From Candidatus Makana argininalis (GTDB taxonomy: Bacteria; Pseudomonadota; Gammaproteobacteria; Enterobacterales; Enterobacteriaceae): a stretch of DNA of 64,000 nucleotides. The translations under genes and the position numbers were made by a program. The stretch's first letter is position 1. Each line of letters begins with the position of its first letter. Below, one piece after another: positions 12,547 through 50,253 of the stretch. The DNA lies in NCBI GenBank assembly GCA_044442785.1, contig JBISJT010000001.1:48831-112830 (forward strand), written 5' to 3'. The notes under the pieces are model-generated. The model ran no database searches. It was not told where the DNA came from and saw only the letters and a list, made by a program, of their open reading frames with translations.

Positions 12547-12592
12547 ATAAAATTAAAAATAATAAATTAAAAATTTAAATCATTATTGAATT

Positions 12593-13243
12593 TCAATTAA
12601 TAGGTGTTTTTATAATTTTTTTTAAAATAAAATTAGTTTTAGAAAAATGTTTACAACCTAAAAATCCATAATGATATGATAATGGACTTGGATGATAAGT
12701 TTTTAAAATAAAATGTTTATTAGAATTTATAAATTTAATTTTTTTTTGAGCATAATTACCCCATAATAAAAAAATTACTTCTTTTAAGTGATCGTTGATT
12801 ATTTGAATAACTAAATCTGTAAATTTTTCCCAACCTATATTTGCATGTGAATTTGGTTTTTTATGTTCAACTGTTAAAATAGAATTTAATAAAAATACAC
12901 CTTGATCTGACCAGCTTTTCAAAAATCCATGTTTAGGTATAACAAAATTACTAATATCGTTATTTAATTCTTTATAAATATTTTTTCATGAAGGAGGTAT
13001 TTTGATACCTTTATTAACAGAAAAAGCTAAACCATTAGCTTGATTAAAATCACAATATGGATCCTGTCCTATTATAACTACTTTTATATTTTTAAATTTA
13101 GTAAATTTAAAAACATTAAATACTTCATTTGAATTTGGATGTATTATTTTACCATATGATCTTTTTTTATTAATAAAATCAATCATTTTTTTAAAAAAAA
13201 TCATTTTTTTAACATCAAATAAAACATCAGACCATGTATTCAT
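12593..13243 (-). pseudogene. ung: uracil-DNA glycosylase, single in-frame TGA (12986-12988) in an otherwise continuous frame
   Basis: The two track ORFs (12986..13243 and 12593..12922) are in the same frame. The 63 nt between them read KNIYKELNNDISNFVIPKHGF, versus E. coli [21 protein letters not shown]. The GQDPY and HPSPLS motifs are present. Confidence 0.75.
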
Positions 13244-42418: not shown

Positions 42419-43324
42419 ATGATAAATATTAAAGATACTATAATATATCTTAATACAATACAAGATTTTATTGTATGGACATTAGATAAATTTAATTCTA
42501 ATAACTTATACTATGGACATGGGACAAACAATGTATTAGATGAATCTTTACATTTAATTATGAATAGTTTATTAATTCCTATTAATTTAGGAAAAAATAT
42601 TTATAAATTAAACCTAACATTACAAGAACGTACTTTAATTATTCAAAGAGTTGTTAAAAGAATTAATAAAAAAATTCCTGTTTCATATTTAACTAATAAA
42701 TCATATTTTTGTGGTTTAGAATTTTATATAGATAATCGTGTTTTTATACCGAGATCACCTATTGGTGAAATTATTATTAATAAATTTAATAAAATTAAAA
42801 ATCCTAAAAATATATTAGATATGTGTACAGGCAGTGGTTGTATAGCTATTTCTTGTGCTTATGTGTATCCTGAAGCAAAAATTGATGCAGTTGATATTTC
42901 TTTAAATGCTTTATCAGTTGCTAAAAAAAATATAAAAATACATGGAATGCAAAACAGAATAAATACTATTTGTTCTGATTTATTTGAAAATATTAATAAG
43001 AAAAATATTTACGATTTAATAATAACTAACCCACCATATTTAAATAATAAGGAATTTAATAACTTACCTTTAGAATTTACTCATGAACCATTAATTAGCT
43101 TATATTCTGATATAAATGGTTTCAAGTGTATAAAAACTATTTTACTATTTTCTTTTATATTTTTGTCAAAAGATGGAATTCTTATTTGTGAAGTTGGAAA
43201 TAATATAATAAATATTATTAATATTTATCCAAAATTACCATTTAGATGGTTAAAATTCAAAAAAGGAGGATATGGGGTTTTTCTGTTATATAAAAAATAT
43301 TTAAATTTTGATAAATATTTTTAA
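42419..43324 (+). CDS. prmB: 50S ribosomal protein L3 glutamine methyltransferase
   Basis: 301 aa (E. coli 310). SAM motif DMCTGSGCIAI and catalytic NPPY. Confidence 0.85.
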   Translation: MINIKDTIIYLNTIQDFIVWTLDKFNSNNLYYGHGTNNVLDESLHLIMNSLLIPINLGKNIYKLNLTLQERTLIIQRVVKRINKKIPVSYLTNKSYFCGLEFYIDNRVFIPRSPIGEIIINKFNKIKNPKNILDMCTGSGCIAISCAYVYPEAKIDAVDISLNALSVAKKNIKIHGMQNRINTICSDLFENINKKNIYDLIITNPPYLNNKEFNNLPLEFTHEPLISLYSDINGFKCIKTILLFSFIFLSKDGILICEVGNNIINIINIYPKLPFRWLKFKKGGYGVFLLYKKYLNFDKYF

Positions 43325-43388: not shown

Positions 43389-44525
43389 ATGTTATTAAAT
43401 AAAAAAAAAGTAATAGTAGGAATGTCTGGAGGAGTTGATTCTTCTGTTTCCGCTTTTCTTCTAAAAAAAAAAGGATATTTAGTAGAAGGTTTGTTTATGA
43501 AAAATTGGTATGGAGATAATAATGAAAATTATTGTAATACTTATAAAGATTTATCAGATGTAAAACATGTATGTTGTCAACTTAAAATAAAATTACATAC
43601 TGCTAATTTTTCTTGTTATTATTGGAATAATGTTTTTATTAAATTCATAAAATTATATAATAATGGAATTACCCCAAATCCAGATATTTTGTGTAACAAA
43701 GAAATAAAATTTAATATTTTTTTAAAATTTGCAATAAAAAAATTAGGAGCTGATTTTATAGCTACAGGTCATTATGTAAGAAAATATATTAATAATAATA
43801 ATATTTATTTATTAAAAGGTAAAGATGAAAAGAAAGATCAAAGTTATTTTTTATATACTATAGGAAATAAAATTAATTATTGTTTATTCCCTTTAGGTTA
43901 TTTTAATAAAAAAAAAATTAGAAAAATAGCCCAAAAATTAGGTTTAATAAATTCACATAAAAAAGATTCCACAGGGATTTGTTTTATAGGTAAAAGAAAA
44001 TTTAGCAAGTTTATAAGTAAATATTTATGTAATAAACCTGGATTAATTATTTCAGATAAAAATAAAAAATTAGGAATGCATAATGGATTAATTTACTATA
44101 CATTAGGTCAAAGAAAAGGAATTGGAATTGGAGGTGTAAAAAATCTTAATCAAAACCCTTGGTATGTAATAGAAAAAAATATTAAAAATAATAATCTTAT
44201 TGTTTCTCAAAAAAAAAATCATCCAAAAATAATGTCTATTGGAATTATAGTTAAAAATATACATTGGGTAAATAAAAAAGAAATTAAAAATTTTTTTTTT
44301 TGTAAAGTAAAAATAAGATATCGTCAAAAAGATATATCTTGTTTTGTAAAAAAAAAAAATGAAAAAAAATTAAATGTAATATTTGATTACCCAATATGAG
44401 CTGTAACACCAGGACAATCTGCTGTTTTTTATTTATCTGATATATGTTTAGGTGGTGGTATTATTAAAAATATTATCACTTTATCAAGTTATAATAATTT
44501 GATTGTTAAAAAATATTTTAAATGA
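43389..44525 (+). pseudogene. mnmA: tRNA 2-thiouridine(34) synthase MnmA with one in-frame TGA (44397-44399); the conserved C-terminus continues in the same frame
   Basis: 336 aa match E. coli MnmA throughout (VIVGMSGGVDSSVSA, NPDILCN.EIKF, DQSYFLY, DSTGICFIG). After the TGA the same frame reads [22 protein letters not shown], versus E. coli [22 protein letters not shown]. Confidence 0.8.
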
Positions 44526-44560
44526 TGTAAATTATTTTATTTATTAATGTTTTAATATTA

Positions 44561-44633
44561 CAGGGGCGAAGAGATTTGAACTCCTAACTATCGGTTTTGG
44601 AGACCGGTGCTCTACCATTTGAACTACGCCCCT
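44561..44633 (-). tRNA. trpT: tRNA-Trp (CCA)
   Basis: Reverse complement AGGGGCGTAGTTCAAATGGTAGAGCACCGGTCTCCAAAACCGATAGTTAGGAGTTCAAATCTCTTCGCCCCTG resembles E. coli tRNA-Trp. The anticodon is CCA and the D-stem G24 is retained. Confidence 0.9.
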
Positions 44634-44806
44634 AATTTTTATATTAATTTAATAATAAAACATATTTTTTTTTTTTACAACTACTAAATTGTTAAAATTA
44701 TATCTTATATATATATAAAAATTTATATTAATATTTCACTTTCTAATACATTAAATCAGTAAAAAAAAAAAATTTAATTTTAATAATATAAATTATGTTT
44801 AAAAAT

Positions 44807-48594: not shown

Positions 48595-50253
<1,659 letters not shown>

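Follow-up and report, generated by a model that had tools for sequence, protein, structure and literature searches.

It has long been asked how a stop codon can change to sense while the cell survives, and such a change has almost never been observed at an early stage. In the eukaryote Blastocrithidia nonstop, where all three stops are reassigned genome-wide, a 2023 Nature study reportedly found a short-stem tRNA-Trp together with a mutant eRF1. In Buchnera and Blochmannia, homopolymer frameshifts are rescued by polymerase slippage. The closest known case to the one described here is Candidatus Providencia siddallii, a leech symbiont whose strains PSOF and PSLP each have 9 genes (~1%) with in-frame UGA codons, proposed to depend on read-through and to mark an early stage of stop-to-Trp reassignment, while a sister strain, PSAC, is much further along, with in-frame UGA in 20% of its genes (PMC10540940). 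By the same account, Hodgkinia, Nasuia, Zinderia and Stammera have lost prfB and carry UGA in 50–70% of their genes (PMC10540940). A natural case of a tRNA-Trp with a 4-bp anticodon stem, Candidatus Zinderia insecticola, is without RF2 and fully reassigned; for standard-code genomes with such a stem, the parts of the same report considered here record only lower UGA-stop usage and make no mention of in-frame UGAs in conserved genes (PMC13092985).

The genome examined here, that of Candidatus Makana argininalis (G000; GCA_044442785.1), is a single contig, 276,618 bp long and free of N, with a G+C content of 19.5%. In the parts considered here, the paper naming the Makana taxon (PMC11425488) contains nothing on in-frame UGA, tRNA-Trp or RF2 points, and its text supplement has no entries for mnmA, prfB, prmC or uracil-DNA glycosylase. 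The window, meaning the whole 64 kb stretch analysed, comprises positions 48,831–112,830 of contig JBISJT010000001.1, and coordinates are those of the window unless marked G000:C1. Four further Candidatus Makana genomes (G001–G004; 277–287 kb), taken whole, formed the comparison set. The tree built from 125 orthologs, with G069, a symbiont of the same family with a 452 kb genome of 22% G+C, as its root, had the topology (G001,(G002,(G000,(G003,G004)))) with 100% support at every node.

With Blastocrithidia nonstop, G000 shares a 4-bp-stem tRNA-Trp(CCA) and a release factor altered where it reads the stop codon, although the factor there is eRF1 and the effect of the S205N change in RF2 of G000 is putative. 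Buchnera and Blochmannia resemble Makana in that leaky lesions appear to persist in conserved genes, but both the lesion type and the step at which rescue would occur differ. Like Providencia siddallii PSOF and PSLP, G000 is a low-G+C Enterobacterales endosymbiont with an intact prfB and a tRNA-Trp with anticodon CCA (PMC10540940), and with two conserved genes bearing three in-frame UGAs it shows the pattern of the early stage. The UGAs of PSOF and PSLP are described as Trp-coding and three are shared between the strains, whereas in G000 one of the three lies at a Trp position and none is found in the four sister genomes; furthermore, the parts of PMC10540940 considered here describe for Providencia siddallii no change in the anticodon stem or the RF2 tripeptide and no loss of prmC, unlike what is seen in G000. 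Hodgkinia, Nasuia, Zinderia and Stammera share with G000 a tiny genome, strong drift and a scarcity of UGA stops, but G000, in contrast to them, has kept prfB and has in-frame UGA in 2 genes (PMC10540940); retention of RF2 likewise sets it apart from Zinderia insecticola (PMC13092985).

We propose, with a probability of about 0.5, that the TGA codons in mnmA and ung of G000 persist since UGA is leaky in this lineage, and that read-through keeps both genes partly working. The finding goes beyond a single isolated nonsense mutation, and G000 is probably a further instance of UGA reassignment at its early, ambiguous stage. Such a stage has already been proposed for one other symbiont, and what G000 adds is an unusually complete set of candidate causes together with a comparative series of related genomes.

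In-frame TGA codons in mnmA and ung

Table 1. Features of the window that bear on the in-frame TGA codons of G000.
Feature	Position	Strand	Description	Match or context
mnmA (tRNA 2-thiouridine(34) synthase)	43389..44525	+	378-codon frame, one interrupting TGA	NF001138; E. coli 2der
Premature TGA, mnmA codon 337	44397..44399	+		context ATA TGA GCT
mnmA tail	44400..44522	+	41 codons past the TGA	[11 protein letters not shown] and CLGGGII identical to E. coli
mnmA natural stop	44523..44525	+	TGA	next base T; TAA 10 codons beyond
ung (uracil-DNA glycosylase)	12575..13243	-	222 codons, two in-frame TGAs	PDB 2jhq 264 bits, 3tr7 257 bits
TGA, ung codon 86	12986..12988	-	PPS-L motif; Leu in relatives	next base A
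TGA, ung codon 217	12593..12595	-	PIN-W	next base A; five conserved codons, then TAA
tRNA-Trp (CCA), sole copy	44560..44634	-	4-bp anticodon stem	C27 (44607) faces A43 (44591)

The first-pass annotation had placed an in-frame TGA 42 codons before the natural end of mnmA, with the frame unchanged, and this was confirmed (Table 1). Under translation table 11 the ORF at 43389..44399 encodes 336 aa, and reading the TGA as X extends the product to 378 residues. The extended product matched NF001138, the NCBIfam MnmA equivalog, at 428.7 bits (cut-off 284), with residues 7–359 aligned to positions 1–345 of the 345 in the profile, so that the family match spans the premature stop; it also matched TIGR00420 at 425.6 bits (cut-off 236.95) and E. 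coli MnmA (PDB 2der) at 468.9 bits, the X falling opposite Ala. GMSGGVDSS (the PP-loop SGGxDS), PDILCNKEIKF and DSTGICFIG are identical to 2der, and the last two are presumably the contexts of the two catalytic Cys of MnmA. The uninterrupted frame expected of an MnmA gene is broken only by the TGA at codon 337. In the alignment with 2der the tail beyond it proved conserved, as had been claimed, and the claim that the TGA sits at a variable position also held, codon 337 being TGT in G003, Cys in G001, TAT in G002 and TCT in G004. From these states, the change in G000 was most likely a TGT to TGA substitution.

All 41 genomes searched, with G000 among them, have mnmA, and 22 of the gene's 76 lineage-unique amino-acid changes were G000-specific (p = 0.17 against a genome-wide share of 0.237), as were two of the eight in the tail. 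For a random reading frame with the base composition seen here we estimate ~0.096 stops per codon and a probability of ~0.016 that 41 codons would be open by chance, which the homology of the tail makes irrelevant in any case. Directly upstream of mnmA lies an intact gene for ribosomal protein L3 glutamine methyltransferase, prmB (42419–43324, + strand, 355 bits); this HemK-family gene is not prmC, which is its paralog. Elsewhere in the genome mnmG is intact (863 bits) and a true IscS is absent, the sole cysteine desulfurase-like match (G000:C1:274977-275666) reaching 95.8 bits against a cut-off of 643.

A second gene in the 64 kb with the same type of lesion had also been announced, and ung bears this out, except that it holds two TGAs rather than the single one described (Table 1). 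Codon 86 is Leu in all four relatives (TTA in three, CTA in one) as well as in 2jhq and 3tr7, while codon 217 is TGG in the 3/3 relatives that have the region in frame and Trp in 2jhq. G000-specific changes made up 9 of the 37 unique amino-acid changes in ung, and 6 of 24 past codon 86. There was therefore no G000-specific excess in mnmA or ung, the portions downstream of the stops included, when set against the genome-wide share. With 2 nonsense and 9 missense changes, the nonsense/missense ratio of ung under neutrality was judged uninformative. Across the sister genomes, mnmA and ung are ~80% identical.

The first-pass annotation had called for a genome-wide scan for further cases, and this returned two genes with three TGAs, plus one trivial TGA. 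Non-overlapping ORFs of each of the five Makana genomes were used as tblastn queries against every other one, and stops were kept if supported by at least 2 reference genomes, with a minimum of 7/20 identities per flank and no fewer than 15 residues upstream and 12 downstream. In G000 this left two, and only two, isolated stops between well-conserved flanks, mnmA codon 337 and ung codon 86, both TGA, and a second look near C-termini added ung codon 217 and a trivial TTA to TGA change in fabD beside its natural TGA. No clean premature TAA or TAG was found in the 277 kb of G000 scanned against the four sister genomes. The remaining stop matches in G000 are clusters of TAA and TAG with poor flanks (G000:C1 157546-157564, 160208-160423, 233849-233858 and 235883), which we class as older, decayed pseudogenes; two of the decayed remnants adjoin prfA. 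Similar decayed clusters occur in G001, G002 and G004.

Clean cases in the sister genomes were, in G002, a TGA in place of a conserved Trp codon of fabD and, in G001, one multi-TAA gene. The latter, of 183–192 aa, has two TAAs with well-conserved flanks and two more, and is the sole TAA-bearing gene with good flanks. By a crude test we counted 1 frameshift locus in G000 and 5 in G001; those of G001 include a T10 run in mnmA (G001:C1:4134-5257) and a poly-A run in ung (G001:C1:36796-37463), with conserved downstream parts in both genes.

RF2, PrmC and tRNA-Trp in the Makana lineage

SPF is the stop-codon-reading 'anticodon' tripeptide of RF2, and PrmC is the methylase that modifies the GGQ glutamine of that factor. 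The first-pass annotation had asked whether prfB (RF2) is intact, and the gene proved to be present at full length and above its family cut-off. RF2 of G000 aligns without gaps to that of E. coli and has N205-P-F in place of S205-P-F. The tripeptide is SPF in G001, NPF in G000, G002 and G004, and NSL in G003, with GGQ kept in all five genomes. SPF was found in 111 of the 120 nearest RF2 homologs, and the named ones among the 9 exceptions are all from insect symbionts. The other non-SPF factors carry NPI (two Candidatus Lightella neohaematopini), NPF (one Buchnera aphidicola), SQF (Candidatus Sodalis endolongispinus) and, in one further RF2, SSF; entries of this kind are labelled P0050, P0102, P0077, P0026 and P0030. 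Among the titles and abstracts listed in a literature search on RF2 S205 variants, none dealt with natural SPF variants. The NSL-bearing RF2 of G003 (G003:C1:20804-21901) coexists with 4 TGA stops in 175 ortholog sets, yet that genome has no in-frame TGA.

An intact prmC was found only in G001 (257 bits), with stop-riddled remnants in G002 and G003, and the gene was undetectable in G000 and G004. Placed on the five-genome tree, these states put the loss of PrmC and the S205N change on the stem of the crown formed by G000, G002, G003 and G004, whereas the tRNA-Trp change G43A and the three TGAs belong to G000 only.

Downstream of mnmA, at a distance of 35 bases and on the opposite strand, is the tRNA-Trp gene (Table 1), which differs from that of G003 by one base, G43A. 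Positions 27 and 43 are C27-G43 in G001, G003 and G004 and U27.G43 in G002, and minimum-energy folds gave a 4-bp anticodon stem in G000 but a paired 27-43 in G003. Across 30 loci of the family the pair was C:G in 26, U:A in 2 and C:A in 2, the last being G000 and G069. G000-specific stem mismatches numbered only 3 in ~706 tRNA stem pairs, tRNA-Trp 27-43 among them, and the probability of hitting this pair by chance is ~0.004. With anticodon CCA, an open 27-43 pair, a 7-nt loop and unchanged A9 and G24, the G000 tRNA fits the 4-bp 'Blastocrithidia-like' definition (PMC13092985).

According to that report, C27A in E. coli tRNA-Trp(CCA) raised read-through of a UGA reporter ~2.5-fold under overexpression, and G43A (C:A) is the commonest variant, making up 35% of 757 bacterial 4-bp-stem tRNA-Trp, and is read-through competent in simulations, the assays themselves having used C27A and G43U rather than G43A (PMC13092985). 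As C27U had no effect in simulation there, we do not count G002, with its U27.G43 pair and a fabD TGA at Trp, as support for a link to the tRNA (PMC13092985). The report also gives 6.5% of standard-code bacteria as having only a 4-bp-stem tRNA-Trp while still using UGA stops (PMC13092985). In G069 (C4:161367-161441, C4:42102-42846), the only tRNA-Trp independently has the same C27.A43; its prmC is decayed, its RF2 keeps SPF, and no in-frame stop was found in the conserved parts of ~188 genes (564 query matches of at least 70% coverage from three reference sets). The 4-bp stem alone is therefore insufficient.

The combination of an NPF RF2, loss of PrmC and a 4-bp tRNA-Trp stem makes UGA suppression in G000 mechanistically plausible, as judged from these gene sequences. 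On this proposal, the TGAs would be recent point mutations from TGT, TTA and TGG that were kept as UGA leaks in the G000 lineage. Three changes would each make termination at UGA weaker or its decoding stronger. RF2 would have lost its methylase PrmC in an ancestor shared by four of the five Makana genomes, and in that same ancestor its SPF would have become NPF; in G000 alone, G43A in tRNA-Trp(CCA) would then have opened the top pair of the anticodon stem. Some ribosomes would insert Trp at the premature UGAs, and we infer that full-length, working MnmA and Ung would result at a reduced level, which would suffice for enzymes of which little is needed. Natural UGA stops, most of which have U as the next base and a TAA or TAG in reserve no more than 10 codons further on, would still terminate.

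Counted over 175 ortholog sets, G000 has five UGA stops against 4–6 in its relatives, so avoidance of UGA stops was not seen; three of the five arose from TAA in the G000 lineage, and TGA stops turn over in every lineage. The base after the in-frame TGAs is G in mnmA and A at both sites in ung, whereas natural TGA stops are followed by T in 7/8 cases. T also follows 79 of 161 TAA stops, which weakens the contrast, and 0/3 against 7/8 is suggestive only. Work cited in PMC10540940 indicates that read-through of UGA by tRNA-Trp is favoured when the next base is A.

Competing explanations for the TGA codons

Read-through is favoured by the place of one TGA at an invariant Trp (ung codon 217), by an RF2 that is in principle doubly weakened, and by the identity of the lesions, in that all three premature stops in conserved genes are TGA. 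Under four mutation spectra, TGA would be expected to make up 0.24–0.29 of single-base nonsense mutations, with TAA 2–3 times commoner, and the chance of drawing only TGA is ~0.014–0.024 for three events or 0.06–0.08 for two genes, figures that rest on very small numbers and on several features having been examined. The same observation tells against the TGAs being ordinary, recent nonsense mutations in two weakly selected genes, with the changes in tRNA-Trp, RF2 and PrmC an unrelated part of symbiont decay. So do the lack of other lesions and of any rate excess in mnmA and ung, the maintenance of both genes at ~80% identity in the sisters, and the presence of a pair known to promote read-through among just three lineage-specific tRNA mismatches. 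Ordinary mutation, the main rival, nevertheless has a substantial, if less than even, chance of being the right account. RF2 is full length, and by the rule set out in the first-pass annotation an intact prfB leans towards an ordinary nonsense mutation; UGA stops are conserved and still arising; only one of the three TGAs is at a Trp position, and Trp may not be tolerated at the conserved Leu of ung codon 86. G004 (NPF) and G003 (NSL), both without PrmC, have no clean in-frame TGA, and neither has G069 with its identical tRNA change. In G001, independent frameshifts fall in exactly mnmA and ung among 5 frameshift loci, which fits weak selection on both genes, although these lesions lie in T10 and poly-A runs and may be leaky or assembly errors. 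Pseudogenes decayed by many TAAs are found in all these genomes, and the rate test has low power for very recent inactivation. Taken together, the lesion, the conserved tail and the second gene stand as the first-pass annotation had them, and while the intact RF2 leans towards nonsense mutation, the altered RF2, PrmC and tRNA-Trp make suppression plausible.

A change of the code itself, with UGA read as Trp throughout as in genetic code 4, deserves almost no credence, and we rejected it. One TGA does stand at an invariant Trp (ung codon 217), and UGA stops are rare, ending 9 of the 214 ORFs that reach 100 aa or more, the two premature ones included. But prfB reaches 421 bits (cut-off 370) without stops, the anticodon of the sole tRNA-Trp is CCA and no tRNA has UCA, 593 TGG codons face a single TGA in a Trp position, and at least 2 genes keep a UGA stop in 5/5 genomes, as a third does in 4/5. 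Selenocysteine was discarded as a reading of UGA, with no tRNA-Sec and no UCA anticodon among the 30 tRNAs found by ARAGORN. It is very improbable that the 336-aa MnmA and the Ung fragments function without their C-terminal parts: the profile and the E. coli structure sequence extend to residue 359–363, the tail of MnmA has its most conserved motifs, and Ung would be cut short by 137 of its 222 residues. Errors in the consensus, or alleles, be they minority or majority, of a polyploid symbiont population that also has intact copies, are improbable too, if somewhat less so. In favour of such a source, metagenome-assembled genomes are given as the origin of the relatives' proteins; yet assemblies rich in A+T usually err by homopolymer indels and not by substitutions, three substitution errors each creating a TGA in a conserved gene would be unlikely, and G000 is one contig with no N and a single frameshift locus by the crude test.

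A possible order of events

If leaky UGA is indeed what keeps mnmA and ung of G000 partly working, G000 may represent a first step towards a changed genetic code. A more far-reaching suggestion, which we offer tentatively and think doubtful, is that the five Makana genomes form a natural series of successive steps by which UGA = Trp arises in bacteria, along a two-component route of the trypanosomatid type. The series would start from a state like that of G001, with an SPF-bearing RF2, PrmC and a 5-bp tRNA-Trp stem; the crown would next have lost PrmC and changed RF2 to NPF (NSL in G003); and lastly G43A would have opened the stem in G000, where the first sense-like UGAs in conserved genes would then have appeared. 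Were this so, weakening of the release factor would come first and a mutation in the tRNA body second, both ahead of RF2 loss or an anticodon change. Since the Makana genomes differ at each of the proposed steps, this order of events is directly testable. A practical consequence concerns annotation pipelines, which will call mnmA and ung pseudogenes and may in this way understate the tRNA-modification and DNA-repair capacity of the symbiont.

Some variation at the two ends of fabD was also recorded. The gene ends in TGA TGA in G000, against TTA TGA in its relatives. In G003 (142973-143910) and G004 (253918-254855) the first 17–27 residues are in another frame, at a poly-A run encoding GYHKKK, while the first 15 residues are unmatched in G000 (G000:C1:264684-265580) and G002, and only G001 has the gene in one frame. 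The poly-A run may be a tolerated slippage site.
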